Notes under the pieces: generated by a model
What the model saw: the letters and a program-made list of their open reading frames with translations, nothing else
What the model was told of the DNA's origin: nothing
Database searches by the model: none
In this document: in pieces, positions 2,028 to 60,005 of the stretch
Layout: every line of letters starts with the position of its first letter
Position numbering within the stretch: the first letter of the stretch is position 1
From: a virus
DNA length: 64,000 bases
IMG/VR virus record: IMGVR_UViG_3300031521_000033
Coordinates: 1-64,000 of that record
Direction: 5' to 3' (one strand)
Translations under genes and position numbers: made by a program

Positions 2028-3503
2028 TTAAGCTGATGTTGACAGCACCGTTGGCTTAGTTTCTATTGGATCTTGTGCCGTACTGTCGGCCATAAGATTT
2101 GCTATCGTTGCATTAATTACATTATCGTCTTGATCCTTTAATGTATCCCTAATTACTTTTTTCTTCAACTCAATATTGTATGAAGGGCATATGTTTAATG
2201 CCAATCCCTGTGTTGCAACGTTTAATGAATCAATCGAATCCACAATACCAAATTGACTGTTATATGTTACTGTTACATTTGTTGCATCTAAATTTTCGCT
2301 CACGTATAAACCAAATATATTTGCAACTATCTGTTCAACACTCTCAAGATTCTGTGCAAACTCTGCAATCGTTTGGAATAAATTTGCATTGTCCCATTCT
2401 TTTGCTATTCCACTTTCCTGTGTTTGAACGCCTGTAACCAACTGCAAACTTGCCATTCTGTATATTTCTTGTACCATCCAAGTTATCTCGTCTGACAACA
2501 TCTTTGACGGGGCCGCATCTGGTGATATAAATTCTGGTTTCTGTGTTCCAGCTTTATATGCTAACAGATCTGTTGTACCAACGGCGATACTTTTTGCAGA
2601 TGCAAAATCATCCTCTTCACTAACCGGATAGGTAAGTAAACTAAACGCCTGATTTCTATTACGTTCTCTAAGTTCGCTGCATGCGTTGTATATGGCGTAA
2701 TTTGTACGGGCTATTGCATATATGTCTGATTGTGGTATAAGCCCTTCTGAGTCGTTTAAAGCACCATATATTGGAATTACTGGTATAATACCAATCTCGT
2801 TTGTTCCTTTCGTACTATCCCCATCTGCATCAACCTGATATGTATCATTTGTCCAAGTCCATGTTTCTGTGTATAATACCTTTTCTCCATCAACTATTTT
2901 AGTACTTCTAATGAAGTATTTTATGTAAATTAATTTTCCAAATTTATCAATAGCCCAATCAGTAACATGATCCGGTCTAACTAAATACAAGTATGGATAT
3001 AATCTGTTATCTTTTGCCGTTTTCAACGATACAGGTTCGGACGTATCTAATTTATCCATATCAACTACAATAAATTGAACCCCATGTAACTTTGCTCTTA
3101 TGGCGGCCCTCTTCATAAACCTATTCATTGATGTTCCTTTTCCGTCAACATTCGATAAAAAATCACCATAAAACTTTGAACCTGTAAATTCCCTTCGTGG
3201 TGAAGTTTTAAATATAGGATTAACATGTGCATCAACAACTGGTTTAACATAATTACAGTAATATGATAAACCTCTACGTCTATTGTATTTGTCTGCTGGT
3301 TCTCTTGGATGGGCTATTAAATATGCACCATCTTCAAAACCGCCGCTGGCTCTATAGCAATCATCTAACAATTTATATTTATTTGGCATTCCATGAAATG
3401 GTACTGATGCTAATAATCGTAATAGTAATGTTTCCTCTTCACTGCACACGCCACTATCCGGTTCATTTGAATCATAAATCTTTTGGTCATGTTTATTTGA
3501 CAA
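2028..3503 (-). CDS. Portal protein
   Basis: 491 aa between TerL and minor head; YYCNYVKPVVD, IPVIPIY and ESGIAKEWD portal-type motifs. Confidence 0.85.
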   Translation of the reverse strand: MSNKHDQKIYDSNEPDSGVCSEEETLLLRLLASVPFHGMPNKYKLLDDCYRASGGFEDGAYLIAHPREPADKYNRRRGLSYYCNYVKPVVDAHVNPIFKTSPRREFTGSKFYGDFLSNVDGKGTSMNRFMKRAAIRAKLHGVQFIVVDMDKLDTSEPVSLKTAKDNRLYPYLYLVRPDHVTDWAIDKFGKLIYIKYFIRSTKIVDGEKVLYTETWTWTNDTYQVDADGDSTKGTNEIGIIPVIPIYGALNDSEGLIPQSDIYAIARTNYAIYNACSELRERNRNQAFSLLTYPVSEEDDFASAKSIAVGTTDLLAYKAGTQKPEFISPDAAPSKMLSDEITWMVQEIYRMASLQLVTGVQTQESGIAKEWDNANLFQTIAEFAQNLESVEQIVANIFGLYVSENLDATNVTVTYNSQFGIVDSIDSLNVATQGLALNICPSYNIELKKKVIRDTLKDQDDNVINATIANLMADSTAQDPIETKPTVLSTSA

Positions 3504-3515
3504 TATATTACCTCC

Positions 3516-4838
3516 TTATATTCCAACCCTCATTGCCGCGTTTCTGATGTTATCTTTATCCCTATTTGTATATACTCCGTACCGAAACCCATCACAAGTA
3601 TGATCGTCAACTTCTTTTGGCGCATCAATTCCCTTTAATTGTGCTTTTTCATCCCATGAGTATGTTGATATTTGCTTGATGGTATTCTTGCACTCGTCAA
3701 CAACATAAAATCTGTCAGATCCAATCATTGTTGCAACTGTACGAATACCATCCAATACTGAATTTTGTGCATTTCTAACTTTCATTCTGAATCTTCTTAA
3801 CTGCAATCTAAAACTAGCTGCCGCCGGATCAATTAGTATCTCAATCTGTTTATAGTTTAATCCTGTTATTTTTGTATGTAGTGTTATAAACTCTTTCATA
3901 TCTTCTGAATAGTCTAAATCTGTTTTCTGAGATTCTTCTGTATGGCCATCATAATAATATTCTTTAACAGTGAAGAATTTTCCATCATATGTTTTGCACT
4001 GTAGCAGAAACACTGTTGCATTACCTGTACCATAATCGCATGCAACCCACCATTTTCTAACTTTATTAAATGGTACATCTTCTAATTTTATTACATGCCG
4101 TTCACTGACAAACATATCATATATAAGACCATCTGCAAGACACCACTGCCCTAAAATGAACCTCTTATAAAATACACCGCTGTAATTACGTTTATATCTG
4201 TCCTTAATTTTTGTTGATAATGAAGGGTTATCGTCCATATCAAAATGAAGATATATACCATTTTTTTCACTTAGTTTTTGTATAAGCTCTGTATAAACCC
4301 AATGGTATGGGCTTCCTGGATTACAGTTAATGAATATTTTACTATCTTCAACTGAGCATCTTCCTGTTGCTTGATTGTAAAATGATTCTGGCATTAAAAC
4401 TACTTCATCAAATAATACAGAACAGAATGTTGAACCCTGTACTAAATCCTGACTTGCCTCATCCTTGCCGCCGAAGATCCAAAACTTATTAACTACACTT
4501 CCCTTGAATATTTCTATGTAACTTAATGATATATTTTCCTGTATCTCATATCCAAGACTTATTAACATTTGCTTTAATGGTGAAAGGACATTACGTTTAA
4601 ACGCCCCAATTGTCTTACCACACATTCCAGCATCCATCTGGTTAAAATGACTCATTACATACAATATAAAAGATAATGTTAATATAATTGTCTTTCCACT
4701 ACGAATTGCGCCGTCTGCAATTATTATATCTTTATCTTTTACAGGGCTATTATCAGCCCAAAATGTTAATACTTTTAATTGCTTTTTTGAAAATGGTTTA
4801 AATTCAAATCCCTTTGTCTCATACTTCCTTAATGCCAT
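3516..4838 (-). CDS. terL: Terminase large subunit (PBSX-family)
   Basis: Walker A GAIRSGKT, Walker B LFDEV, NCNP coupling motif, nuclease CDYG and DDHTCDGFRY. Confidence 0.95.
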   Translation of the reverse strand: MALRKYETKGFEFKPFSKKQLKVLTFWADNSPVKDKDIIIADGAIRSGKTIILTLSFILYVMSHFNQMDAGMCGKTIGAFKRNVLSPLKQMLISLGYEIQENISLSYIEIFKGSVVNKFWIFGGKDEASQDLVQGSTFCSVLFDEVVLMPESFYNQATGRCSVEDSKIFINCNPGSPYHWVYTELIQKLSEKNGIYLHFDMDDNPSLSTKIKDRYKRNYSGVFYKRFILGQWCLADGLIYDMFVSERHVIKLEDVPFNKVRKWWVACDYGTGNATVFLLQCKTYDGKFFTVKEYYYDGHTEESQKTDLDYSEDMKEFITLHTKITGLNYKQIEILIDPAAASFRLQLRRFRMKVRNAQNSVLDGIRTVATMIGSDRFYVVDECKNTIKQISTYSWDEKAQLKGIDAPKEVDDHTCDGFRYGVYTNRDKDNIRNAAMRVGI

Positions 4839-5535
4839 CTAAATCATCATCCTTATCGTCCTTCCAAACTTCTAATGATTTAGAATTAATTGCTTCAAGA
4901 ATATTGCTACCAGCTTTTTCATCTTTAGCTTTTTCAGCTTGCCAACTAAAGAACTCTTTCAAACGGTCCCATGCCCATTTTTGATCTAATAGTTCAATTG
5001 ATACACCATCTCGGCCTTCTTTAATCTTGCTAATAAGGCTTGTATCCAAATATGCACTATCTTGTAATTCAACCTTATTAATCTTGCGAGTCATAACTTC
5101 TCCAGTGTCAGGATCTTTTACAACTCCACATAAATTAACAATTGGTATTACTTCTGATTTGAATTTAACAAAATCACCAATATTTGCATTTGCAACTTTC
5201 TGTAGAAAATTAACATACTGTGTTACATCTATTTCCATTGCATGTAGCATTATTTTCTTTACAGCTTTTAATTCTTTTTGTACCGATGGTTTTGCCATCA
5301 ATTTACAGCCTTCATATGTTGCCCTTGCTCTAGTTACTGTAGGATCGTTATCTCGATATGCCTTAAGATAAGCTGATGTTGCATTTCCGCTTTCAACTAC
5401 GTATAATACAAACTCTTTTTCCTTATCACTAATATTACTATCACATACATGTTCTATCATCTTATTTGTAATAGCTTTAGATTTTGATGGTTTAATATTT
5501 GCTTCAATGATATCATCTTTTTTCTTTCTCGCCAC
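4819..5535 (-). CDS. terS: Terminase small subunit (likely GTG start at 5535)
   Basis: HTH-type GNATSAYLKAY motif, C-terminal DGVSIELLDQKWA; RBS AAAGGAGG before GTG; upstream of terL. Confidence 0.85.
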   Translation of the reverse strand: MARKKKDDIIEANIKPSKSKAITNKMIEHVCDSNISDKEKEFVLYVVESGNATSAYLKAYRDNDPTVTRARATYEGCKLMAKPSVQKELKAVKKIMLHAMEIDVTQYVNFLQKVANANIGDFVKFKSEVIPIVNLCGVVKDPDTGEVMTRKINKVELQDSAYLDTSLISKIKEGRDGVSIELLDQKWAWDRLKEFFSWQAEKAKDEKAGSNILEAINSKSLEVWKDDKDDDLDGIKEV

Positions 5536-5564
5536 ATAATTACCTCCTTTATACACCTACATTA

Positions 5565-5593
5565 ATTATAACACATTTTTACTAATTTGTCAA
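5565..5593 (-). promoter_or_regulatory. Sigma-A type promoter for terS-terL-portal
   Basis: TTGACA-17 bp-TATAAT with extended TG. Confidence 0.8.
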
Positions 5594-5608
5594 TACCTTT
5601 GCACAAAA

Positions 5609-5660
5609 TAATAGCCATAATTAAGTTAACGAATAATCGCAACCTGATCATGGCTATTAT
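5609..5660 (-). terminator. Long stem-loop ending the tRNA transcript (terminator or processing hairpin)
   Basis: ATAATAGCCAT...ATGGCTATTAT perfect arms extended by G-U pairs on the minus strand, followed by TTT. Confidence 0.5.
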
Positions 5661-5694
5661 AAAAGGAGATAATAAAAATGAATAAGTCTGTTTT

Positions 5695-5753
5695 TGGGAA
5701 TTAATGGATTTGAACCATTTATATACGTGAATACAGCCACCAAGACTTTTCCC
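5695..5753 (-). pseudogene. Degenerate tRNA-like element
   Basis: Perfect T-arm AATGG-TTCAAAT-CCATT and GGGAA/TTCCC acceptor-like ends, but shortened D and anticodon arms and no CCA. Confidence 0.5.
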
Positions 5754-5756
5754 ATA

Positions 5757-5830
5757 TGGAGCACCACCACAGGATCTAACTGTGATTATGGCTTTACAAA
5801 AGCCACGTACTAACATTATACTAGTGGTGC
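5757..5830 (-). tRNA. tRNA-Thr(UGU)
   Basis: GCACCAC/GTGGTGC acceptor, TGGCT-TTTGTAA-AGCCA anticodon arm, CACAG/CTGTG T-stem, encoded CCA. Confidence 0.85.
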
Positions 5831-5838
5831 AGTAATAT

Positions 5839-5915
5839 TGGTGGGACCTGATGGGAACGATCCATCGACCTGTCCGTTATGAGCGGAATGCTCTAACCAA
5901 CTGAGCTAAGGTCCC
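5839..5915 (-). tRNA. tRNA with CAU anticodon (most like Ile2/lysidine type; Met not excluded)
   Basis: GGGACCT/AGGTCCC acceptor, GCTC-AGTTGGTTA-GAGC D arm, CTCATAA loop, A73 and CCA; resembles Bacillota tRNA-Ile2. Confidence 0.9.
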
Positions 5916-5921
5916 ATTAAT

Positions 5922-6008
5922 ATAGGTAATATTAACCCCAACCATCGTTAATATACTTGATGACCAATCAGTCTCATACATAATGTCATCCCCGTTGTTT
6001 CATCCTAT
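5922..6008 (-). ncRNA. Structured 5' leader of the tRNA transcript (three-way junction)
   Basis: ATAGG/CCTAT closing stem enclosing GATGAC/GTCATC and TATTAAC/GTTAATA hairpins, starting at the predicted +1. Confidence 0.45.
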
Positions 6009-6014
6009 ATTTAT

Positions 6015-6043
6015 ATTATAACACATTTTTACTTACTTGTCAA
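6015..6043 (-). promoter_or_regulatory. Sigma-A type promoter of the tRNA operon
   Basis: TTGACA-17-TATAAT, nearly identical to the terS promoter. Confidence 0.8.
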
Positions 6044-6049
6044 TACTTT

Positions 6050-7243
6050 TTATAAAACTAATTTTGTTCTTGTTGTTCCAACTGTGAAATAGAAACCATC
6101 ACTTGCTTTTTCAATTGTTCCATCTAACGCTCCTGCTGCAACTGCTGCCGCCGGAAGTAATGTTGATGTTCTAATTCTTACAGGTGACATTGTAAGCGGT
6201 GATGCTCCTAGTCCGCCGTTTAAAGTAGCCGCACCGCCAACACCTGTTGATAGATACATTAATGCTACAAAAGCTATTCCACCTGTCCCTGCGACCGCTG
6301 GTGATGCTAATGTTGTAATAGGTACACTTGATAGTACAGACATACCACTTGATGTTGTAGTGAGTACTGGAGTATTTGTAGTTGTCATTGATACAAGTCC
6401 TGATACATATGCCGCTGTTCCTGCTACAACTACCTGACCAACTACTGAATCTGATGTATGTGTAAATGCTATTGCTCCACCAATTGCTAATGCAATATTA
6501 TCTGGTGCATCAACTTTAAATGATGCTCTATTAGCAATAAAACTACCTGTTGCTCCTGTAGTTGAATAAAAACAACGTGCCGATGCATTTGAATGTAGAA
6601 CACTTACATTACCATCTAATAATTGTATTTTACTTGCAGAATTTGTATTGGTCCATACAATTGCATCTCCCACGCCTGATGGGGAAACACTATTAACAAA
6701 ACTATTTATTAGTTGTAAATTAGCTGCTGCAGATCCACTAAATGATAATGTTGTTCCTGATCCTGCGGTTGCTGCATTTTGCAATACAATATTTTCACCA
6801 ATAACTGTACCTGAAAATGAAGATACATGATTACCAATAATATAAACACCATATTTAACAGGTGATGTTATATTTACTCCTGCCTTTAGTGTTATATTCT
6901 CTGTGTACATACCAGGATATACACCTATTGTATAACCACTTGAAGCAACGTCTATGGCCCTCTGTACTGTTAAATAAGGTGAACCTAAACTACCATCACC
7001 TGCCGTATCATTACCATTTTTAGAAACATATAGATAATTACTTGGTTTGATCAAACTATCAACAGCTCCTTTAAGCCACCAACCATTTCCTGTGGCCGGG
7101 TTTATATTTTTATTACTCCACACATATTCTGTTTTAGTATCTAATTCAGTAAAATTGGCCAATTCATATATCTTACCTGTAGGCTTATCATCTGAAAAAA
7201 GACCACTATAATTAAGTTTATTTATGTCATAATAAACTGCCAT
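6050..7243 (-). CDS. G/S/T/A-rich beta-helix (pectin-lyase fold, DUF1565-like) protein; possible virion fibre or decoration protein
   Basis: LYVSKNGNDTAGDGSLGSPYLTVQRAID...VYPGMYTENITL is the typical N-cap of parallel beta-helix proteins; likely start MAVYYD with RBS AAAGGA. Confidence 0.6.
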   Translation of the reverse strand: MAVYYDINKLNYSGLFSDDKPTGKIYELANFTELDTKTEYVWSNKNINPATGNGWWLKGAVDSLIKPSNYLYVSKNGNDTAGDGSLGSPYLTVQRAIDVASSGYTIGVYPGMYTENITLKAGVNITSPVKYGVYIIGNHVSSFSGTVIGENIVLQNAATAGSGTTLSFSGSAAANLQLINSFVNSVSPSGVGDAIVWTNTNSASKIQLLDGNVSVLHSNASARCFYSTTGATGSFIANRASFKVDAPDNIALAIGGAIAFTHTSDSVVGQVVVAGTAAYVSGLVSMTTTNTPVLTTTSSGMSVLSSVPITTLASPAVAGTGGIAFVALMYLSTGVGGAATLNGGLGASPLTMSPVRIRTSTLLPAAAVAAGALDGTIEKASDGFYFTVGTTRTKLVL

Positions 7244-7274
7244 TAACACACATCCTTTTAATTTTATATAAAAC

Positions 7275-7301
7275 AAAAAGGACTAGTTTAAAAACCAGTC
7301 C
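7275..7301 (-). terminator. Rho-independent terminator closing the large ncRNA
   Basis: GGACTGGTTT-TT-AAACTAGTCC followed by TTTTT on the minus strand. Confidence 0.8.
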
Positions 7302-7310
7302 AAAATATAA

Positions 7311-7912
7311 TGATGCTTTTTCCAATCTCCACAACCATCCCCCAATATTACCATAGTAATCAAGTTTGAAAAGCATCTGAAAAATGGTTGCTTCCGTTTG
7401 CAAACGTTATTTTATTTAACATAAACCTAAATGGTTAAACCAACTGCTAATACAGCCTCACAAATGTTATAAAATGGACAATAGTTAACAGTATTTTTCT
7501 AATATGCTCAATTACATAACATTTTCTCTTCTCACATATTAAGGTGTTTCATGTTAATACGATTTTGGTAGGATTCGTAACCTCTAATACTAGTACTTGC
7601 TCACAAGTGAATGATATTCTAAATTAAAGCCCCGTCATTCCCGGAGGCTGATATTATTATTTGTTGTGGTGATCATCCACATTCATTCAATTCCTATTTT
7701 TACAGGTTGGAGTTCCTGACTTTGTTTATTCGCTTATGGCTGTTAGTTTTCAGTATTTTATTGGGTTCAACTAGTGAACTTCCCCTCATTTAACTGTACA
7801 TACAAGTATTACAGCACCACTCACTTATTTGCCTCGCTCTTTCGGGTGCGATATCCCAACTTCTTGGAAATGGGTTTAACGTCTCCATTCCGACCATGTA
7901 TGCATACAAGTT
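7311..7912 (-). ncRNA. Large structured ncRNA, ROOL-like (ROOL/GOLLD class) candidate
   Basis: ~600 nt with no ORF between a consensus promoter and a terminator; locally more G/C-rich; many stems (TGCATACA/TGTATGTA, TCGC..GAAA..GCGA, 3' GATGCTTTT/AAAAGCATC); size and tRNA-adjacent phage context fit ROOL. Family not verified by covariance model. Confidence 0.65.
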
Positions 7913-7999
7913 ATAGGATAATCATTCTCAAAATATTTTAGCATTAAAACTTATCCCATAAAGTGGGAATCTTTTTTGTTTCTTTTATCCTATATTATT

Positions 8000-8028
8000 A
8001 TTATAACATACTTTTACCTTTTTGTCAA
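8000..8028 (-). promoter_or_regulatory. Sigma-A type promoter for the large ncRNA
   Basis: TTGACA-17-TATAAT with extended TG; predicted +1 near 7993. Confidence 0.8.
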
Positions 8029-8137
8029 TAGATTTATATAATATATTTAATATAATATTTGCAAAGGTTATATCAACTTGGTTGCAAGCTGTTTAAGTAC
8101 TATTTTTTATATACTTTAGGGAATGTGAGTACTTGAT

Positions 8138-8235
8138 ATATAGAAAAATCCCTAGCATTTAGTAAAAATTAGTCCAATTTATAAATTAATAAAAATTGAA
8201 ATAGTTTAACTAAATGTTAGAGGATTTTTCTATAT
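8138..8235. repeat. Long imperfect inverted repeat (~98 bp)
   Basis: ATATAGAAAAATCC-CTAGCATTTAGT ... ACTAAATGTTAG-AGGATTTTTCTATAT. Confidence 0.85.
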
Positions 8236-8591
8236 TGATAAATTTCTTTAGTGAAAAGCTCGCACCTATCAATAGTTCTGTTTTTACAGAGCCAGACTAT
8301 TACTTAAGAACACTCAATGCCCGTGTTCATAATAGCCATCCCACATATGCATAATAATACACATACGTCACTGACCACCCTTGCCGAATTATATTGCCGC
8401 AATCGCAATCATACTGTAAGTATTATAAATAATTAACAGGTCCGTTACATTAGGATCACTGTTTACATCTATAATATATATCTTATAGCAAAGCACATTT
8501 ACAGATTAAGGCTGTGCGGACCATGACCAATTTCTTGTATATCAGAAATTTAAGATCTTATTATATAACGGTTAATATTAAATTTTATCTT
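8138..8591 (-). ncRNA. Second putative structured ncRNA, family unknown
   Basis: No ORF; own promoter at 8598-8626; serial stems GGTCCG/CGGACC, ACGTATGTGTA/TATGCATATGT, GGCTATTA..GAACAC/GTGTTC..TAATAGTC, TATTGATA/TATCAATA, ending in the long IR. Confidence 0.5.
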
Positions 8592-8597
8592 ATCTAC

Positions 8598-8626
8598 AGT
8601 ATACCACACTTTAACATATTTGTCAA
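8598..8626 (-). promoter_or_regulatory. Sigma-A type promoter (leftward)
   Basis: TTGACA-17-TATACT with extended TG. Confidence 0.75.
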
Positions 8627-8710
8627 GTGTTTTTTATTATTTATTTTAAATTATTTTTAACTACCTTATTTATATTATAACACAACTAAAGTTAAAAGTA
8701 AATATTTTTA

Positions 8711-8739
8711 TTTACATATTACATAAAGTATGCTATAAT
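8711..8739 (+). promoter_or_regulatory. Rightward promoter at the divergence point
   Basis: TTTACA-17-TATAAT with extended TG. Confidence 0.6.
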
Positions 8740-8878
8740 TAGTTTTAATAGTTTTTATTTTGTTTCCTATATAAGTATAAGGACTATGCAATAAAAACAG
8801 CACACAGGCAATACTACATAGCTTAAACTGTATTGCAACACTAAAATATATGTATTATATAGAAAGGAAGTCCATAAC

Positions 8879-9034
8879 ATGTTAAAAAGTAATATTCATA
8901 AGAAGATAACCAGTGAGGATAAATTTGCAAGAAAGTATTATTGTGATCATGCAAGACTAAATTCAATTAGGTTTGACAAGAAGTATAACAAACGTAAATT
9001 AAGAAGATACTTAAAAAATAAAATGAATGACTGA
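8879..9034 (+). CDS. Small basic hypothetical protein (51 aa)
   Basis: Not in the ORF track; RBS GAAAGGAAG; MLKSNIHKK...KMND. Confidence 0.55.
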   Translation: MLKSNIHKKITSEDKFARKYYCDHARLNSIRFDKKYNKRKLRRYLKNKMND

Positions 9035-9041
9035 AAAGTAC

Positions 9042-9070
9042 TTTACAAAAAGGTATAGTTGTGTTATACT
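9042..9070 (+). promoter_or_regulatory. Rightward promoter for the plus-strand accessory operon
   Basis: TTTACA-17-TATACT with extended TG. Confidence 0.6.
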
Positions 9071-9104
9071 ATAAATATAGTATAAATTAAAGGTGGTTTT
9101 TATA

Positions 9105-9272
9105 GTGGATAAAATTTATGGTAAGAAAACTAAACAAATGAACATTAAATTACCTATAGAACAAATGCACAAATTCCAAACAAAATGTGATGATGAGGGT
9201 ACTAATGTGTCAGCAAAGGTTAGATATTTTATTCTAAGATACTTGGAAGGTAGATTAATATGCAAGAATTAA
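9105..9272 (+). CDS. Ribbon-helix-helix (Arc/CopG-like) DNA-binding protein, 55 aa
   Basis: GTG start with RBS AGGTGG; KQMNIKLPIEQMHKFQTKCDDEGTNVSAKVRYFILRYL fits the RHH strand-helix-G-x-S-helix pattern. Confidence 0.65.
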   Translation: MDKIYGKKTKQMNIKLPIEQMHKFQTKCDDEGTNVSAKVRYFILRYLEGRLICKN

Positions 9273-9418
9273 AGACAGATGATATTGAGTATATGATTGA
9301 ATTTGCATATCAAACAATGTATATTCCTGACTCAGCGGCTAGATGCTATGATGCTGCAATGAATCAATTAGAAAAAATTAAAGAATATATCAAGGTGAAT
9401 AAAAATAATGAACAATAA
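9260..9418 (+). CDS. Hypothetical protein (52 aa)
   Basis: Overlapping-gene chain, RBS GGAAGG. Confidence 0.5.
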   Translation: MQELKTDDIEYMIEFAYQTMYIPDSAARCYDAAMNQLEKIKEYIKVNKNNEQ

Positions 9419-9587
9419 TGAGTTAGATCTAAACCATGAAATAAACGAAAATGTAAATGCAACAGCATCAATAACCGAAGATAAGGTTGCTATTGGTGTT
9501 GATTACAAAATATCAGATGCAACAATATTATCAGTATCAAAAAATAACAAAGGTGAATCAGCCGCAAAATTAACAATTAATATATAG
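9408..9587 (+). CDS. Hypothetical beta-strand-rich protein (59 aa)
   Basis: RBS AAGGTG; alternating hydrophobic strands. Confidence 0.5.
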   Translation: MNNNELDLNHEINENVNATASITEDKVAIGVDYKISDATILSVSKNNKGESAAKLTINI

Positions 9588-9601
9588 GAGGAAACTAACT
9601 T

Positions 9602-9952
9602 ATGACAGGATTAGAAATTTCAATGCAATTACAGGAATTAGATGTAGATATTAATTCTATTTATGAAACAATGAATACATCAATTTCAAAAACAGCAAAA
9701 GATGAGTTAAAAAAGGTATTAGCAGTATTAGGTGATAGGTATAGTGAATTATCTACAACCTCGTATCGACCAGTTAGTGGTGTTATTAATTGTAAGGGAG
9801 AACATATGGATTACTTATCTCTTAATGGGATTATGTGTAAGTTTACAAAAGATGACACAGCAGAAAATCTAATTAAAGAATTTAAAAATTATAATTGGAA
9901 ACGCGAAGTACAGGGTAAATTTGCAGAAGATGATGGGAGCCATGGAAATTGA
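9602..9952 (+). CDS. Hypothetical protein
   Basis: RBS AGGAGG; operon context. Confidence 0.7.
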   Translation: MTGLEISMQLQELDVDINSIYETMNTSISKTAKDELKKVLAVLGDRYSELSTTSYRPVSGVINCKGEHMDYLSLNGIMCKFTKDDTAENLIKEFKNYNWKREVQGKFAEDDGSHGN

Positions 9953-10149
9953 ACAATATTATGATAACATTAAAATTATCGGAAGAGCAGATTATTGCAC
10001 TTGGTGATAATGCAGAAAAAGAAGAATTTAAAAATGATAAAGAGTCTATGATTGGTTTATATAATTTGTTATTATATAAGAAAGTAAAAGAAATATTAGT
10101 ACCAGCGGATGCATTTATTGCAATTAGAAAGTGGGTTGGATTAGATTGA
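9949..10149 (+). CDS. Hypothetical protein
   Basis: TTGA overlap with the upstream gene. Confidence 0.6.
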   Translation: MNNIMITLKLSEEQIIALGDNAEKEEFKNDKESMIGLYNLLLYKKVKEILVPADAFIAIRKWVGLD

Positions 10150-10310
10150 AAAAAGCAAGTGAAGAAAAATTCTTCGAATGGTTTTATTTTAACTGTGACT
10201 TTGGACCTAGTGATTCAGATTACCGGGATAGAAAAGTTAAAGAGTTTGAAGAAGCAACAGGATTAAAAGCACCAGATGGTTTTGGAGAGGAATGGGAAAA
10301 TGCAGAGTAA
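10146..10310 (+). CDS. Small acidic phage protein (54 aa)
   Basis: TTGA overlap; WFYFNCDFGPSDSD...TGLKAPDGF. Confidence 0.55.
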   Translation: MKKASEEKFFEWFYFNCDFGPSDSDYRDRKVKEFEEATGLKAPDGFGEEWENAE

Positions 10311-10803
10311 ATATAAAGTTGGGGATAAGGTTAGGATTAAAAGTTGGGAAGAACTTTTAAAAATTGGTAAAGAGTGTTATGCAGATCAGTCTATATACTT
10401 TGAAGAGATGCATGGTTATTTAGATAGGGATGATAGTTCTTTATGCGGTAATGTATTCAAAATCAGAAGTATAAGTACTCTTGGTAAGTTCTTTGTTGAT
10501 GCCCCAACTCATGCTATATTTTGTGATAATATGGTAACACCAGTTACAGAAGAAGATAAAAAACCTGACCTATACTTAAAATATGTAAAAGATGACGTGG
10601 TTGAACATCCAAGTCATTATACAACAGGTAATATTGAGGTTTGGGACTATATTAATGATCAAAACTTAGATTATTTTCTTGGAAACGCTGTAAAATACAT
10701 CAGCCGGGATGGAAAAAAGGATAAATCAAAGGAAATTGAAGATTTAGAGAAAGCGGTTGCATATTTAAATAAAAAAATAAGTATTTTAAAGGAGAATGTA
10801 TAA
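10300..10803 (+). CDS. DUF3310 (T7 gp1.7/SaV-like) domain protein with an N-terminal KOW/SH3-like domain
   Basis: VEHPSHYTTGNIEVWDYI, GNAVKYISR, EDLEKAVAYL; N-terminal KYKVGDKVRIK. Confidence 0.8.
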   Translation: MQSKYKVGDKVRIKSWEELLKIGKECYADQSIYFEEMHGYLDRDDSSLCGNVFKIRSISTLGKFFVDAPTHAIFCDNMVTPVTEEDKKPDLYLKYVKDDVVEHPSHYTTGNIEVWDYINDQNLDYFLGNAVKYISRDGKKDKSKEIEDLEKAVAYLNKKISILKENV

Positions 10804-10805
10804 TT

Positions 10806-10952
10806 ATGCCACTGTCAAAAGGTAAAAGTAATAAAAGTATTTCAAAAAATATAAAAACAGAAATGGCAAGCGGTAAATCACAGGCACAATCAGTGGCAAT
10901 TGCATTATCTGTTGCTAAAAAGGGTAAAAAATCAAAGAAAAAAGGTAAATAA
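10806..10952 (+). CDS. Small basic conserved phage protein (MPLxKGKS...QxVAIAL family), 48 aa
   Basis: MPLSKGKSNKSISKNIKTEMASGKSQAQSVAIALSVAKK; RBS AAGGAG; missed by the ORF track. Confidence 0.7.
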   Translation: MPLSKGKSNKSISKNIKTEMASGKSQAQSVAIALSVAKKGKKSKKKGK

Positions 10953-10953
10953 T

Positions 10954-13161
10954 ATGTCAGATGAAGAAGTTTTTATACAAAACGCTAAAAATTACCATGA
11001 AAAGCATCCAGAGGTTGATATGGTTACTGCAAAGTATCAAGGTGCTTATAATAATTGGTGTTCTAAGATGTTTGATAAATATTCTGACTCTAATTATACA
11101 GTTGTATTCAGAACAGATGGAAAGGAGATTAATTAATGTTCATGGAAAACACAAAATTATATGTAACAGTTGAATCAAGGTATAAAATTGGTCAGCGGGT
11201 TTCAGATACATTTTTAGGTCATCAAAATGGTATTGTAATTGATATGAAGTTAGATGAAATAGATGATGTGTATTACTTTGTATATAAAATAGAATTAGAA
11301 TCAAGTGGTGAAACTGTAGAAATAAATGAGAGCAATTTAAAGGTTATTGACATTATATAATAAACGTGATATTATAGTGACAAAGGGGATAGTAAATATG
11401 AATAAATTTATTTGTAGTAAGTGTGGAACAGATATTAACTTAGAAAATGATAAATATGGGTATAGTCTGGATAGATGCCATGAGATTAGATTGGGAAGAG
11501 TTGGCTATGGTTCCATATTTGATGGATGTGATCTTAATTTTAATTTATGTGACGATTGTTTATATAAATTCATTCAATCATTTACAGAAAAAGGTAAAAA
11601 TAAAGTAATGCAATCAGGTTGTTGGCAAGAGTATAAACCGGACAATACAGTTGCGGAACAGTTGCGTGATTTTATAGGCAAGATCAAAGGAAATAAATAT
11701 TATATATTTGGAAGGAATAAAAAATGAAAATTATAAAATTAGTAAAAAATGGTCATGATAATTATTATGCAATGTTTGACAAAGAATTTCCAGTATTAAC
11801 ATATGAAAAGATTGGTTCAGATTATGTTGGATCAGTCAAAGATGACAATGGAAATGTTATATTAAGTAATGTATTAAAGTGGGAAAGTTGGCCCGGTGCA
11901 TTTGGTGGAAGAGAAATAACACTAAAAATGAAAGATGGTACTGATCAAGTAATTAAAGATTATTGGTATGATTGTGGGTATGATTCAAATGAAGGTGAAT
12001 TTATTTCGATTGGGGCCGGAACGTTAGAAGAACTACAAAAATGTTTTGTATATTATAGTCTAAACATTAAATTGTCCACATTTGAAGAAATGGTTAATGA
12101 ATATTTATCACGGGACAAATTATATGACTATAAAGAAGTAGAAGAATGGGCAAAGATTCAGTATAAATGGTATCCTCTTGTGGTTCACGGTAAAGTTCGT
12201 CCGTTTATGATGAATAAATTTGGTATGGTTGTAACAGCGGAAACCAAAGAACGTGTTTATACAGAACGATTTAATAGACGAAGAAAAGATGGTAAATTAT
12301 ATAATTATTTTAAAATGTCATATAATGATGGGACCAGATTAGTAAAATTAGAGGATACATATATTAATGTATGCCTAGAAACGCTCACAACGTACTGTAG
12401 AGACGAAATAATTACAAACTGTAAGCTAGATCCAGAAACAAATAAAGCACCACTTACAAAGGAACAACAGGATGAAATTAAACCAATTAAGAGTGATATT
12501 AAATTATTGAAGGATCTATTGAAACGGCACGATGCAGAAGATTTAATATCATTAACATTTTTGGAAGATCAATTACAAAAAAGAGTAGAGGAGTTTTTAA
12601 AATGATAACATTATATAATAAAGTAAATAATACAACTGTTGGCATATTTAATTCAATGGATGAAGCTAATGAGATTAATGATAATACAGGAAGGTTTACA
12701 CCAATTGATACTAACGTTACAAATTATATTATAGAAGCACAGGGTGTAGTTAGGGTAACACCTAGTAGAGAATTAGCAATAAGATATTTTGATCTTGGCA
12801 TGGCTACAATTAAAAAACTACAACTAGAAGAACAATTTATTGTGGGGGCTTGGTAATGGGACTTATATGGTGGATGTTATATAAATTAAGGCATTTTTAT
12901 TTAAGTGATGAAGATAGTTGTAGACTAACGATAGGCGTAGTATATGCAAAAAAGGGAACAAACCCATTTGAAAAAGATTATGAAGAACAAGTGGCCCTTG
13001 GAGTAAAAAATGGATTTGTACGGTATAAGTTCAGACATCCACAGGATCGATACAAAGAATGGATTGGTTGTTCATGTACATGCAGTTCTTACATTCTTAC
13101 AATATTTACCGATGATATGGAAATAATTGATATTGATTATTATGGAGTGATGGGTAGATGA
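10954..13161 (+). CDS. Chain of hypothetical proteins (10954-11136, 11136-11360, 11398-11727, 11724-12605, 12602-12856, 12850-13161)
   Basis: Tightly coupled ORFs with RBSs; no recognisable function. Confidence 0.65.
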
Positions 13162-13913
13162 GTGATGCAGATACAACAGAATCGCTTAGAGTAGCGTTAC
13201 GCAGTCGATATCAAATGCCTGAGTGGATATTAATGGAGGAAGTTGGAAATGCAACTGGTTGCCGCTGTAGTCGTTATGCAGATGCATTAGCATACAATCT
13301 TTATCCATCTAAGAACTACCAAAAGATTGGCTTTGAAATTAAAGCCTCAAAAGGTGATCTTAGGAGAGAATTAAAGGATGGTTCAAAGTCTGATGCAATT
13401 GCCAAATACTGTGATGAATGGTATTTGGTAGTTCCAAAAGGTTTATGCGATAACGAAGAAATTCCTTTAACATGGGGAATTATGGAATTAAATAATGACA
13501 AACTCAGAATAAAAAAGAAACCAGAAAAACTTGTTAATAAAATTCCATTTGATAATGACATTATTTCAGGAATTTTACAGTCCGTCATTAGACTTGCAAG
13601 AAATCGTTATGATTGGAATGCTAGTATTATACAAAGAAAACTCGAGAAGGAAAATGAAAAACATATTGCAGATAGAATTGCACAAAGATTATCAGAAGTT
13701 GAAACTGATCTTGCTGCATTAAAGGATATAAAACAAAAATTAGGACTAAGTTCATATAGACCAATTGATTCAGATGAATTTGTTAAAAACTATAAACTTG
13801 CACAGAAAATATCAGATCAGTATGTTGAGTATAGAGCACAATCACTTGAAACAGTTGCAAAGAGATTAATTGAGGATGCAACAGAATTACGTAAAATAGA
13901 AAAAGGAGAATAA
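13158..13913 (+). CDS. MmcB-like PD-(D/E)xK nuclease-fold protein
   Basis: EEV...RYADAL...GFEIKASKGDLRREL...K...YCDEWYLVVP. Confidence 0.7.
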   Translation: MSDADTTESLRVALRSRYQMPEWILMEEVGNATGCRCSRYADALAYNLYPSKNYQKIGFEIKASKGDLRRELKDGSKSDAIAKYCDEWYLVVPKGLCDNEEIPLTWGIMELNNDKLRIKKKPEKLVNKIPFDNDIISGILQSVIRLARNRYDWNASIIQRKLEKENEKHIADRIAQRLSEVETDLAALKDIKQKLGLSSYRPIDSDEFVKNYKLAQKISDQYVEYRAQSLETVAKRLIEDATELRKIEKGE

Positions 13914-13915
13914 TA

Positions 13916-14588
13916 ATGAAAATTGTTAAAGTATGCGGTACATGCGATTGGCATGATGAGTTTACATGTGTATGCTGTAATGGTAGAAGTAAATTTAGGG
14001 CTGATGTTACAGAATTAATTGGAACATGCAGATTTTGGACGGATAAAAACAAAAACGTATTAGGTGAAATATTTGCAAGCAGTTGTGGTAATGATGGTAA
14101 GCCAACTTTAGACAAGATTGGTTCAGATAATGTTAATACAAGAATACTAGAACAGTCTGTATTAAGAAATATTGTTCCTAAAGAATTTGTAAGTCAGGTA
14201 CATTTGAAAGGAAGTCTATAATATGAAAACAGGTATCGACGCATTTGGAGAAGAAGTATTAATTGGGGATCAGGTAGTTTATAATACAGGATATTCCGCT
14301 TATTCTAAAATAAATGGAGTAAACTACAAGGCATTAAATAAGGGAATTGTAACAAAGATTACTCCAAAGGGAGTTACAATAGGTAAATTAATTAATAGAC
14401 CATCAAATAAAATTTATAAAACTAATTCACATAGGATTGAATTTTTAACTAAAATAATTATAAATATGCAAGACGCACTTATAGAGTTAGCATATCTTGG
14501 AGGAAATATAGGAAGCTATGGAAATAGTGAGGGTAATAAAATTGCAATTAATGCATTGGAAAGATTTTATAAGGAAATTGAAACATAA
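13916..14588 (+). CDS. Two hypothetical proteins (13916-14221 Cys-rich; 14223-14588)
   Basis: RBSs, operon context. Confidence 0.6.
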
Positions 14589-14817
14589 TGTACAGTAGGA
14601 ATAAACAGTTTAAGAAAGCAGTTAGGATAATGGGATTATATGGAACCAATGTAAACAACAATATTTTTATACGCGCGTTGAATTATATCGATAAAATGTC
14701 TAAAGAAACTAAAATACTACTTGCAAATATGAAAAGGATATGATATAATGAGTAATAGAGAAATTGCAAAACAGTTATGTAAAGAATTTATCATAAGAAA
14801 AAAGGGGAATAAATGAA

Positions 14818-15627
14818 ATGGGATTTTTAGAAAATGTAAATTTGGAAAAGATACAAAGTAAAGATGATGATATTGTTGATGTATTATTTTATATTTCTGG
14901 TGGAAACTCCGAAGATAATAGAGTAATTAATATGCATAAATATGATATGTATAATAATGGAGTGTTTTTAAGATATCGTAATAGATTTGATGAACCAACA
15001 AGGCAAGAAATTTTAACCATGAAGTCAAAAGAAAGTTATCGTTATGCAGATAGTTATTTACGTGATAAAGTAAATAATGTTGTGAATGGTATACTAAATG
15101 GTTTATATAATGAATTAATTTGCCGTAGGCGGGAATGCATTGCTGAATTATTACAAACTGGAAAACTAGAATCAGTATTTGAATTTGACGGATCAAATAA
15201 GCCTAAATTATTTGAATATGAATTTGATATTAGTGAATCTACATTAGATGATTTAAAAGTTCCAGAAGGAAGTCGATGTGCAATTGTATCAATTAATACG
15301 TTTAAAAAAATAGTTGATTTAATAGGCGTAAAACTTGGTATTGGAGTTATTGCATCAAAATATTATAAAGATAATATAATTACATTTTTACCAACACTTC
15401 ATATTGGTGAGTTATTAATTGGTATTACACCAGAGGAAGCAGATAATTATAATAGGAATAATTATAAAACAAAAGTATTTGATAATACCGGAATCGCTGT
15501 ATCATGTTTTTGTCCTGAAACATCTCCGTCAAATTTAGAAATGATTATATCAACATTATTCTTACCGAAGTTGTCAAAGGGAATAGAAGATCAAATTAAA
15601 ATTGTAAAAATAAAGGATGATAAATAA
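14818..15627 (+). CDS. Divergent major capsid protein E-like protein
   Basis: DEPTRQEILT, RRECIAELLQTGKL and ITFLP..IGELLIGITPEEAD..TGIAVS..PSNLEMIISTLFLP resemble Bacillota Phage_cap_E segments; shorter than a typical MCP and outside the head module. Confidence 0.6.
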   Translation: MGFLENVNLEKIQSKDDDIVDVLFYISGGNSEDNRVINMHKYDMYNNGVFLRYRNRFDEPTRQEILTMKSKESYRYADSYLRDKVNNVVNGILNGLYNELICRRRECIAELLQTGKLESVFEFDGSNKPKLFEYEFDISESTLDDLKVPEGSRCAIVSINTFKKIVDLIGVKLGIGVIASKYYKDNIITFLPTLHIGELLIGITPEEADNYNRNNYKTKVFDNTGIAVSCFCPETSPSNLEMIISTLFLPKLSKGIEDQIKIVKIKDDK

Positions 15628-19483: not shown

Positions 19484-22400
19484 GAAAAAGCCTTACCATT
19501 TACTGATAAGACTTGATCTATTTTAATCATTTAGTTCTGTAAACCTTTGTTCGAGTAAATCCTGTATTTCAGCTGGAGTAACAAACCACTCTTTAGACTC
19601 TTTCAGATTTTTTGTGATAATAACAATATCATTTGAATTATAACTGTCATTTTGTCCTGCAATACACTCTATTTCTCCATCACAATCATATAAAACAATC
19701 ATCGCTTTTCCATCAAAGTCATTAAATTCATCACAAACATACTGTAAGTTCTTAATAGCTTCTTCTGTCATGTCTTCAATTGCAGTTGCGTGTCTTTCTA
19801 CACTCATCTCAACCACTCCTTTAATTTATCTTATAATTCATTATACATCTAATAAATAAGTCTGTCAACACTATTATTTAAAATAAATAAAAAAAAGAGC
19901 CTATCATTAGTTAATCACTTCCAATTCAATTATTTCAACTTTACAAGCCGTGTTACAAACAAATTTTGCAAACTTTTGGGCTTCTTCCTTTGTTGTAAAT
20001 ACTGCTTGAGAAGTTGATTCAACTCTGTCTGTAAAACGATTTAAATAAACTGGTTGATATAATTTCATGATTATCGATCTCCCTTATATTTTATTAGTCT
20101 ATTTCATAACCCTCTGAATTATAACTCTGACTGATTAGTATGTCAACAATTATTTAACCTTTACTATAAATCCAATACGGCATTGGTGTATGCCACTTTT
20201 CATAGGCTCTTGAATCAACTACTTGATATAAACTATTTCCAAATGGTGTACTTTGTATTTCGTAATAAGTATCCGTTTCTTCATTATAAATTGCCCATGC
20301 AAATTCATCGGATAAGACTTTTGCTATTTCCACTGTACAACTATTAGTGTCCCAAAGTTCTAAATGTTCGTGAGTATATCCAATTAGCTGTAATTCTGGT
20401 TTGTTACCAAATTTTTGAATGTGATCTGCTAAGTAATTATCATATGCACTCATGCTAATTTCTCCTTTGTTTTATTTACTATAATCATTATACTGCTGGA
20501 TAATTGTTATGTCAATACTATTTTAAATATTAATTAAATATTATTTTGACCTCGTAGAATCGTTTCTAAGCGATTTAATTTAACAATGCATATACTTGTA
20601 TAGGCTTATAGTAAAACATTTGATTAGCATAGCAATGCATAAGCAAAAAGCCCTTACTATGTATTAAGTAAAGGCTTAATTTATTAACTATACTCTAATT
20701 TTTCACAATTGGTAAACCACCACTCACAATTTACGCAACGTGTTAATGGTGGCATTTCTCTAATATTACAGTGCTTAGTTATCATATCACATCCTTCAAT
20801 ATCGCAGGATACAAAACATTTAGGGGGTTCATTATTAATTTGTCTCAAGATAGCAATCTCTTGTTTTGTCAAAGTACTCCATCCTTTCTGATTCTTCTAA
20901 CGCTAAATGACTTTTATATCTGTAATGCTTGTAATTATCCCCATGAAAAGCCTTAACTGCTCTTGTAAATCCATGATCTAAAGCCTTTTCAACAACATCA
21001 AGCAGGCATAAATCACGCATTGCATTATATAGAATAGTTATTTCAGTTTGAATAATATCCCCATTTTCAAGATAAGACTGCTTTTTATGTGGATCTGGTT
21101 CATTGGTATAATTCATATCATTGCATTTTCTAAGATAATACAATAATTCAAGTCGTGTATAAAAATACTGCTTTTCATTCTTTGTCATGATTAACATTCT
21201 CCTTTATATAATTACATTAGCGAATGATAGAGATAATTTATTCCCCATTCAATAGATTCATTGTTAATACCTTCATTGGCATCATGCCCGTGTTCAAGCA
21301 ATGTTAGTACGCAGAAACATTGCTTGTCTGATAATTCTTTACCATCTTTAAACACTATTTCTCTTTCTTCAATAATGTTTCTTACATCTTCAATTCCCCA
21401 TACAATACTAATTGTCATTTCTTTTTCGTTAATCATTTAAAACCACTCCTTAATTTTTTCTATAATTCATTATAACACTAAACAAATTAATTGTAAAGAC
21501 TTTTATTTAAATTTAATTTCTTTTTTTATAGGTTTCGCCTGTTTTATATTTCCATTCAATAGTATAGATTGCTTTACTCCATCCGTCATAATATCATCGA
21601 AAGCAACCAATATGATCCATTTGTCTAAATTGCTCTATAGCTGATTTTAAACTGACAGCTTCAATCAAATAAATAAATCTATCTTTAAGGAATAATTTAA
21701 ATACATATCTATTTTTCATATTATCAGCTATTTCATTAAACTATTTTAAAATGTAATTCCATGCAAAACTGGACTGCTTCTTGATACTCAAAAAATTGTT
21801 CATAATCAAATATATCTTGTAAATACCCATTCAAATACTGCTTTATTTCGTATAGTCCATTACTTTCAACCAATTTAATACTCATGTATAATACCTCCTC
21901 TTGATTAACCTAAGTATATCATACCTAAAATACACTTGTCAAGAAAATAATAAAAAATAAGCCCTACAATTAAGTAGGACTTTAATACTATTTCAATAGG
22001 TCTTTAATTCGTTGGTAATATAATACCCATTTTTCACAGTCAACGTCTGCATCATCACACGATGCGTAACAATTACCCATTTTATATAATAATAGGTATA
22101 ATTGATTGCTCTTGTCATAAAAACCTGCAATCTTTTCCCCTTTTACACCAATAAACCAAAATGATTCTCTGTCTTCTGGCTTAAATGGTGCTTTTATAAT
22201 TGGATTTGGGCAGTCAACAAAAAATCCAATATCGCCGGTGTCTTCAACCGTTGCCCATTGATCCTGTTCTTTGTTATAGCACTGTAAAATTGTTGTATCC
22301 GGTGGCTGTTTTATAAATCTAAATTCTTGAATACCTTCATTGTAATAATCACGCGTGAAATGCTCGGCAAATTTAACATTAAGTCCGGTTCTAATAATTT

Positions 22401-28928: not shown

Positions 28929-29095
28929 ATTTGTTATCCCCTTTCTTCTATAAACCTATAATACCATACCATTTTAAGCTTGTCAAGCATATAAATAAAA
29001 AAAGAGCAAGAAATTAATCTCACTCTTTTTTGTATACTTATGTAATTGTATTCGGTAGAGTGTTGGTCTACCATAGAAGAGGATCACCGCCTTTC

Positions 29096-55687: not shown

Positions 55688-56237
55688 TAATCGATACTCC
55701 CTACTAATCTATATTTTAATCTTGCATAATTATGGATGATAAAAGAATTATACATTATCATTTCTATCGACATTATTTTGCCACCTCTAAATATTTAATT
55801 CCTATATTCTTTCCTCTTTTTATATACATCCATACACCTGTAATTGATCCCTCATCTATTACTGCCCTTTTTAGCATATGTTGTAGATCTGGTAAAGCCA
55901 TGCTATATTCTAGGTTATTAGTATCAGTTAGTAAAGCAGTTTCTGGTGTACACCCCCTTGCGATCCATTTAATCTTCATTGTGTCTTCCCATAGTTTATT
56001 TTCTTTATACACAGGTAATACTTGATAATCACATTCTGTATAATCTTCAAAACACTTATTGCCCCATTTACCATCTGTTGCTCTTATATACCATAATACC
56101 TTTTTATCTGCTGTCAGTGTTTGGTTTAATACCATTTTCGTTCCCCCCTCATCTATAATATCAGTATACCACCGTCTGCAATATATGTCAATATATAAAA
56201 ATAAAAAGATGAAGAAATTAATCCCCATCTTTTAAAT

Positions 56238-56435
56238 TTATCTTACATATAATCCGCATCTGCATGCTTGCAATTCCCTCATATATCTACAAGGGCAAAT
56301 AGTATCTTCATTCCTATTTGGCAAGCAGGGACAAAATCCATCATTCTTATTTAATTTGTCAATGATCACTTGCACATGATTAATATCTGGATTTGTTTTC
56401 ATATTATATTTAGTTGCAATTGTTTCTAACGTCAA
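56238..56435 (-). CDS. Ferredoxin-thioredoxin reductase catalytic-subunit-like protein
   Basis: CPC..CPC..CRCGLY triple motif (canonical CPC/CPC/CHC). Confidence 0.8.
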   Translation of the reverse strand: MTLETIATKYNMKTNPDINHVQVIIDKLNKNDGFCPCLPNRNEDTICPCRYMRELQACRCGLYVR

Positions 56436-59585: not shown

Positions 59586-60005
59586 TTAAAATTCCTCATT
59601 TCTTTTCATTTCTGATAATGCAACTTCTTTGGACTTCTTTGTTGATCTCTTTACTACATTATTATCAATTTTCATATCCTCAAATGCAACTGCTCTCCAA
59701 CCATGTAATATTGCCTTATTTACTTGTAATACCATTTGTTCCTCTGTTGGTAACTTCTTTAATAGATCTAAATTCTTCTGCCATGATATCTTACTTGGCA
59801 TGTTACGTTGTTCTTTTCTGTTTTTCAAATATTCATCTAATGCTGATTGAAGAGCTAAACTTTCTGGAAATGCTACTTGATTCATATCATATAATGATAA
59901 AACCTTATAATACTTTTTTATATTGGCTTCCTTACCAAATAGTGCCATATATTGTTGTACCTCCTCTGTATATATAATTATACCACAATATCTTGTATTT
60001 GTCAA
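59586..60005 (-). CDS. Replication initiator C-terminal-like protein
   Basis: EYLKNRK...L.LLKKL...VNKAILHGWRAV resembles C-termini of phage replisome organisers. Confidence 0.45.
   Translation of the reverse strand: MTNTRYCGIIIYTEEVQQYMALFGKEANIKKYYKVLSLYDMNQVAFPESLALQSALDEYLKNRKEQRNMPSKISWQKNLDLLKKLPTEEQMVLQVNKAILHGWRAVAFEDMKIDNNVVKRSTKKSKEVALSEMKRNEEF

Follow-up and report, generated by a model that had tools for sequence, protein, structure and literature searches.

A plausible non-coding transcript behind tandem promoters at the divergent junction of a phage genome, tentatively read as the leader of an RNA island

We found that positions 8138-8591 of a 94,209-base virus record form an ORF-free, promoter-preceded region, and we tentatively read it, with somewhat less than even confidence, as the untranslated, partly folded 5′ part of a long transcript running leftward through an RNA island, in which it would serve as leader or precursor and a long duplex as processing site. 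The feature is real and at the same time under-supported, and as a non-coding transcript it is plausible yet unproven. The first 64 kb of the record are hereafter called the window; the G+C content of the whole genome is 33%, and many peat metagenome runs contain the phage sequence. Among them, DNA runs X7-X18 share 57-96% of the sequence words of the region, and the phage also occurs in the peat metatranscriptome runs X19-X24. In the leader reading, transcripts would start at two tandem host-type promoters (8702 and 8626), and polymerase would run on through the neighbouring 657-nt RNA (7993 to 7337) toward a promoter-less beta-helix gene and the tRNAs. The leader would likely be cut off at the long AU-rich duplex at 8138-8236, and the minus-strand-specific domains at 8436-8575 and 8290-8372 would be the candidates for function. 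The coordinates of all features are collected in Table 1.

Table 1. Features in and around the ORF-free region; z values compare folding energy with shuffled sequences.
Feature	Position	Strand	Remark
ORF-free region under study	8591 to 8138	minus	first unit when reading leftward from ~8.7 kb
Upstream tandem promoter, TTTACT-17-TATAAT with TG	8674..8702	minus	76 nt upstream of the 8626 promoter
Promoter TTGACA-17-TATACT, extended -10 TG	8598..8626 (-35 8626-8621, -10 8603-8598)	minus	11/12 consensus positions
Domain A	8436..8575	minus	z -2.56 (4/300 shuffles as good); plus strand -0.84
Long-range stem GGTCCG with CGGACC	8439-8444 with 8518-8523	minus	
Alternative stem CCGTTA with TAACGG	8442-8447 with 8566-8571	minus	
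Domain B, two adjacent hairpins (8343-8368, 8295-8337)	8290..8372	minus	z -3.67 (0/300 shuffles); plus strand -0.62
11-bp hairpin	8343-8368		four pairs G-U, on minus strand only
Compound stem, 15 bp	8295-8337	minus	
Linker with 5-bp hairpin (UCUGU/ACAGA)	8237..8289	minus	z -0.95, not significantly structured
AU-rich near-palindrome, 99 nt (~98)	8138..8236	both	z ~-10 on each strand
AT-rich spacer up to the next promoter (8028..8000)	8029..8137	minus	no terminator-like site; z -1.0 and -0.6
Neighbouring ORF-free unit, preceded by a perfect consensus promoter (8028..8000)	7993 to 7337	minus	657-nt RNA
Terminator	7646-7630	minus	
Terminator	7301-7270	minus	strong; upstream of the beta-helix gene
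Beta-helix, tail-like protein, 397 aa	7243-6050	minus	
Perfect promoter preceding tRNA-Met and tRNA-Thr	6043..6015	minus	
tRNA-Thr and tRNA-Met	5757-5915		only gathering-level Rfam matches in the 64-kb window
Promoter preceding small and large terminase subunits	5593..5565	minus	
Promoter-in-hairpin windows	5565-5700, 21900-22000, 28950-29075, 56163-56275; genome 65128-65250	minus	

The preliminary description had reported a strong promoter followed by no ORF, and both statements held. The region remained ORF-free under genetic code 11, under code 4 and with TAG read as Q, and alternative genetic codes were rejected on this result. The largest ORFs in the region encode 34-48 aa and lack ribosome-binding sites and support from Pfam or PHROG; a small protein or type I toxin was rejected as well, no hydrophobic peptide with a ribosome-binding site having been found, and no trace of a decayed gene was seen in the region. 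The promoter is a near-consensus match on the minus strand, and its predicted start lies at about 8591, directed leftward into the ORF-free DNA. Genome-wide, 39 near-consensus promoter matches were obtained, 31 of them on the minus strand, like most genes, and most of the intergenic minus-strand matches have an ORF 2-100 nt downstream. The longest ORF-free runs among the intergenic matches follow the promoters at 8626 (1194 nt) and 8028 (596 nt). Given the match at 11 of 12 consensus positions and this genome-wide pattern of promoters and ORFs, we regard the 8626 promoter call as credible and the DNA downstream as untranslated.

The region lies within 7280-8879, the single divergent junction of the genome, where credible ORFs are absent. 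Small early genes, mostly without function by annotation, run rightward from a promoter at 8711-8739. Between 8200 and 8600, G exceeds C on the minus strand, as in other leftward genes, and the sign changes only near 8750-8800. The leader reading draws on this G excess together with the promoter, the minus-strand-specific domains and the absence of a terminator: the terminator scan returned none between 8591 and 8028, and because no terminator-like site precedes the next promoter (8028), transcription from the 8626 promoter may well continue into the neighbouring unit.

The same position also invites an explanation at the level of DNA, which we consider unlikely, namely that the sole divergent junction holds an origin or unwinding region, or a packaging or terminus site, in which the 99-bp palindrome acts as DNA (as a cruciform or a protein site) and the flanking promoters activate or prime. 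Such an element would fit a palindrome that folds alike on both strands and has no second copy in the genome. It would also fit the point at which transcription diverges into rightward early and leftward packaging genes, with a local change of sign in GC skew. An AT-rich stretch of the kind expected for unwinding at a replication origin is adjacent: among 200-nt windows over the 94 kb, 8551-8750 is the genome-wide GC minimum (16%), with 8601-8800 second. As to a packaging or terminus site, the two ends of the record share a repeat of 124 bp, a length close to that of an assembly overlap, and they may therefore not be the physical ends. However, the GC skew at the junction just tracks gene orientation, 8138-8591 contains no iterons and no repeat family or tandem array, and no initiator gene was recognised among the ten neighbouring rightward ORFs (9602-15627). 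A DNA element would, moreover, leave the minus-strand-only folding of Domains A and B unexplained.

The divergent promoters themselves show a further arrangement. The leftward promoter at 8702..8674 and the rightward one at 8711..8739 stand back to back as a 31-nt imperfect inverted repeat (8674-8704 with 8709-8739), and the pair (8674-8739) looks like a switch region. The first sizeable rightward ORF, at 9093-9272, has a weak repressor-type PHROG match (E 0.003).

We then compared the predicted folds of the two strands. All stems listed in the preliminary description are present, as written on the minus strand. In Domain A, CCGUUAUAU (8571-8563) pairs with AUGUAACGG (8451-8443) as the closing stem, for which GGUCCG/CGGACC is an alternative, and a 7-bp hairpin (8529-8550) and a longer one (8467-8506) are predicted inside. 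Domain B consists of two adjacent hairpins, and the overlapping 100-nt window 8276-8375 ranked seventh of about 3770 minus-strand windows after correction for GC content. The fold of the whole 454 nt scored z -5.87 for the minus and -4.20 for the plus strand; when the long hairpin was removed, the remaining 355 nt (8237-8591) had z -2.28 on the minus and -0.11 on the plus strand. The region thus folds better than shuffled controls as a whole and, on the minus strand, in its body, but most of the signal comes from the strand-symmetric hairpin at 8138-8236: since the hairpin alone gives z about -10 and the rest about -2.3, the headline value of -5.9 is mostly its contribution. As a background we used 36 sense-strand windows of 355 nt taken within coding sequence of this genome, with a mean z of -0.27 (sd 1.10) and a minimum of -2.21; the z of the body lies just beyond the lowest of them. 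By these predictions, the strand read from the promoter has structure of its own that is real but moderate, in addition to a large strand-neutral palindrome. The neighbouring RNA (7337-7993), which is well covered in RNA libraries, had an MFE z of only -0.23, indicating that fold scores discriminate poorly in this genome.

These values bear on whether the region has a function at all. It could be functionless spacer, that is, decayed or duplicated DNA that kept its promoter, with stems that are the chance yield of an AT-rich, G+U-rich sequence; we doubt this. The 59 nt around the 8626 promoter are 75% alike to the promoter region of the next unit (8002-8060), which is compatible with an old duplication, the z of the body is not far beyond the coding background, the library-covered neighbour itself scores about -0.2, and no relatives appeared in the searches made. 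However, Domain B falls within the 0.2% most stable GC-corrected windows, and does so on the strand of the promoter only, the 99-nt palindrome is far beyond chance, and the region showed no trace of a decayed gene. Furthermore, phage genomes are compact, and few ORF-free stretches lie behind consensus promoters in this one.

The strongest structure in the region is the long hairpin at 8138-8236. A terminal, near-perfect hairpin of about 98 nt had been described, and it stands as a structure but not as a terminator: an intrinsic (Rho-independent) terminator was rejected, given that the stem is AU-rich, no U-run follows and the site was absent from the terminator scan. On the minus strand the hairpin is followed by AUAUCAAGUAC and on the plus strand by UGAUAAAUUUC, with a U-tract in neither. 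In the stem, the outer 14 bp pair perfectly, one mismatch falls in the following 12 bp and the inner pairs are imperfect; the predicted folds of both strands have 26 pairs broken by only one 1-nt interruption (a one-base bulge in the plus fold), followed by the inner pairs. The calculated energy was -35.8 kcal/mol for the plus and -32.4 kcal/mol for the minus strand, the slight advantage of the plus strand coming from the outer mismatch, a G-U pair on that strand but A-C on the minus. This speaks against the leader reading, since the strongest structure is strand-symmetric, marginally better on the plus strand and no pointer to a minus-strand RNA; the hairpin could equally act as DNA. On the other side, the predicted duplex has the roughly 20 bp or more of nearly continuous pairing of an RNase III substrate, and it is by this resemblance that 8138-8236 would be the likely place of cleavage in the leader reading. 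The early transcripts of the Bacillus phages SP82 and SPO1, with their RNase III processing hairpins, offer a parallel. By analogy, both cases would combine a long, nearly perfect duplex between transcript units with strong host-type promoters and no U-tract, whereas the duplex here is longer, more AU-rich and slightly more stable on the opposite strand.

Downstream of the neighbouring unit, the beta-helix gene begins 27 nt past the strong terminator at 7301-7270 and has no promoter of its own. The put RNA of phage HK022, with two adjacent hairpins shortly after a phage promoter and ahead of the terminators to be passed for expression of downstream genes, resembles Domain B in layout only, in that two adjacent hairpins would lie downstream of a promoter and upstream of terminators. 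Domain B, unlike the put RNA, is about 220 nt from the predicted start, which we believe to be farther, and the host type differs. That the Domain B hairpins act in cis in this manner, letting polymerase pass the terminators at 7646-7630 and 7301-7270, would be no more than a guess, and we think it improbable.

RNA-library contigs from four metatranscriptome runs of four studies were compared with positions 3000-13000; such contigs carry no information on strand, transcript ends or level, and the libraries may contain DNA. In the region under study, one low-depth contig (8109-8371) was found, in a single run (X19), and, being strandless, it is no test of transcription; 8372-8591 has no contig cover in the four runs, for which contigs only were compared. 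Each of the four runs had cover over the neighbouring unit, at 7647-8011, 7335-7882, 7337-7974 and 7341-7977; in the last two cases (runs X21 and X22) it was a 97% variant. Two clusters of contig ends were seen, at 7335-7342 and at 7974-8011, and in one run position 7337 is followed by adapter letters. In the variant, substitutions cluster in 7441-7567 and none falls in 7692-7921. In run X19, the neighbour contig extends to 8011, passing the predicted start of the 8028 promoter by 18 nt on the upstream side, and another contig (7048-7342) spans the terminator at 7301-7270. These two contigs are compatible with some upstream transcription entering the neighbouring unit and with passage of the terminator.

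An alternative is a stand-alone, trans-acting structured RNA of about 450 nt from the promoter at 8626, of a new class as the preliminary description had suggested, with its 3′ end protected by the long hairpin, acting together with or in parallel to the 657-nt neighbour. We rate this as unlikely. Such an RNA would have its own promoter, two strand-specific domains and no ORF, and it would sit with tRNA genes and with an RNA seen in the contigs of four runs, a setting also described for GOLLD and ROOL (PMC5737381) and for the phage K long non-coding RNAs (PMC9241854); no known family matches it. However, a terminator is absent, no homologue was found in the searched collections, and the contig at 8109-8371 runs 29 nt past the proposed 3′ end while lacking the 5′ half. 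Similarity to the neighbouring RNA is absent too, and paralogy was rejected, as the local alignment score was below the shuffle mean. Nor was there a signal of special complementarity to it, the whole-length duplex energy having z +0.8 relative to shuffles. A bolder form of this alternative, a new kind of stand-alone RNA with Domains A and B as its core, would make the region the second part of an RNA island that precedes the packaging genes and comprises two long RNAs and tRNAs. Its partner might be the 657-nt neighbour, or it might help polymerase in cis past the terminators gating the beta-helix gene. This form, too, we hold to be rather unlikely.

Searches for relatives were made at several levels. 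With cmscan, run over the whole window with gathering scores and over 7200-9100 with E <= 10, the covariance models of ROOL (RF03087) and GOLLD (RF01998) gave no match, and the neighbouring RNA (7337-7993) had no Rfam match, these two families included. The earlier statement that the region matches none of tmRNA, RNase P, 6S, SRP and group I/II introns was borne out by the Rfam models and ARAGORN, the latter finding no tmRNA. Matches below threshold in the region were to models of plant microRNAs, a lncRNA and Enterococcus sRNA, all far below gathering scores, with those of the plant microRNAs lying on the AU-rich hairpin. In 50,697 phage records (INPHARED), blastn with 7280-8880 returned only a 70-nt promoter-like match, in Clostridium phage CS03. 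A diversity-generating (DGR) template or a repeat of another genome part was rejected, no copy being present elsewhere in the genome.

Relatives of the neighbouring proteins led to no comparable island. Those of the large terminase (IMG/VR, JGI metagenome contigs and GTDB genomes) had 23-44% identity, and the fetched loci lacked such an island; one of these loci has dense ORFs on both strands and no tRNA or Rfam match, and another lies on a Ruminococcus MAG contig. Relatives of the beta-helix protein are numerous, with identities of 44-70%. Among the best 30 loci with its homologues, none showed preceding ORF-free DNA or a nearby tRNA gene, and 80 IMG/VR loci around such homologues gave no match to the region or its neighbour by blastn or nhmmer. 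Exact 16-19-mers from the region hit 0, 5 and 14 IMG/VR loci, all of them chance by nhmmer (the five 18-mer loci checked for composition had 40-59% GC), while an 18-mer from the neighbouring unit hit 0. A covariance model built from the one sequence of Domain B matched nothing but Domain B itself in 488 kb. Homologues of the region in phage metagenomes, for which the preliminary description had named BLASTN and nhmmer as the means, were thus absent from the searched INPHARED, IMG/VR and JGI collections. With no relatives in these collections, no stem has covariation support, and the undescribed phage ncRNA class that the preliminary description thought possible is as yet without basis. Of the outcomes it had named as refuting (a known family, absent transcription, folding no better than shuffled controls), none was clearly obtained and none clearly avoided.

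In 399 Clostridia-class genomes, 27 of the 29 listed matches fell on 7979-8058, and the two others were short, chance-level matches in the AT-rich hairpin. The segment 7979-8058 comprises the promoter at 8028..8000 and its AT-rich upstream flank, and it matched 26 of the 399 genomes at 73-94% identity over 30-75 nt. These sequence matches fit a strong host-type promoter of a Clostridia phage and hint at a Clostridia-like host.

To our knowledge, only a small number of long non-coding RNAs encoded by phages have been described, and an established function is not known for any of them. Phage K carries two of them beside tRNA genes, one with its own early promoter and the other transcribed from a promoter upstream of a tRNA gene (PMC9241854). 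The likeness to these RNAs (lnc001 and lnc002 of the Kayvirus group) lies in a large phage of a low-GC Gram-positive host with two ORF-free units of several hundred nucleotides beside tRNA genes, and in one unit with its own early host-type promoter; the function of both phage K RNAs is undefined (PMC9241854). In contrast, no blastn similarity was found among the 50,697 phage records, a collection in which Kayvirus is presumably included, and the phage K RNAs are abundant by stranded RNA-seq (PMC9241854), whereas in our case good RNA-library cover is limited to the neighbour (7337-7993). ROOL and GOLLD are large, multi-stem, non-coding RNAs of phages and prophages, often next to tRNA genes (PMC5737381), and the ROOL-type setting near tRNA genes is found here as well (a 94,209-base virus record with tRNA-Thr and tRNA-Met at 5757-5915). 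ROOL averages 581 nt and GOLLD is longer (PMC5737381), compared with 355-454 nt for the region; unlike them, the region matches neither covariance model (E <= 10), shows no conserved architecture through relatives and lacks an abundance signal.

Given that the 657-nt neighbour recurs in peat and permafrost RNA libraries, the RNA island is a concrete study site in an uncultured, probably Clostridia-infecting phage. If the region is a functional leader or partner RNA, it would offer a testable case of RNA-level control of late or packaging gene expression; should it turn out to be spacer or a DNA element, only one RNA plus tRNAs would remain of the island, and the finding would be ordinary.

Elsewhere in the genome, two further minus-strand stretches of at least 390 nt without a same-strand ORF of at least 50 aa follow the promoters at 21942 and 60005 (21437-21913 and 59587-59977, 390-480 nt), and these could be further untranslated leaders or small genes. 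In addition, several of the most stable GC-corrected 100-nt windows of the minus strand coincide with near-consensus promoters, at 5593, 21942, 28986, 56191 and 65156.
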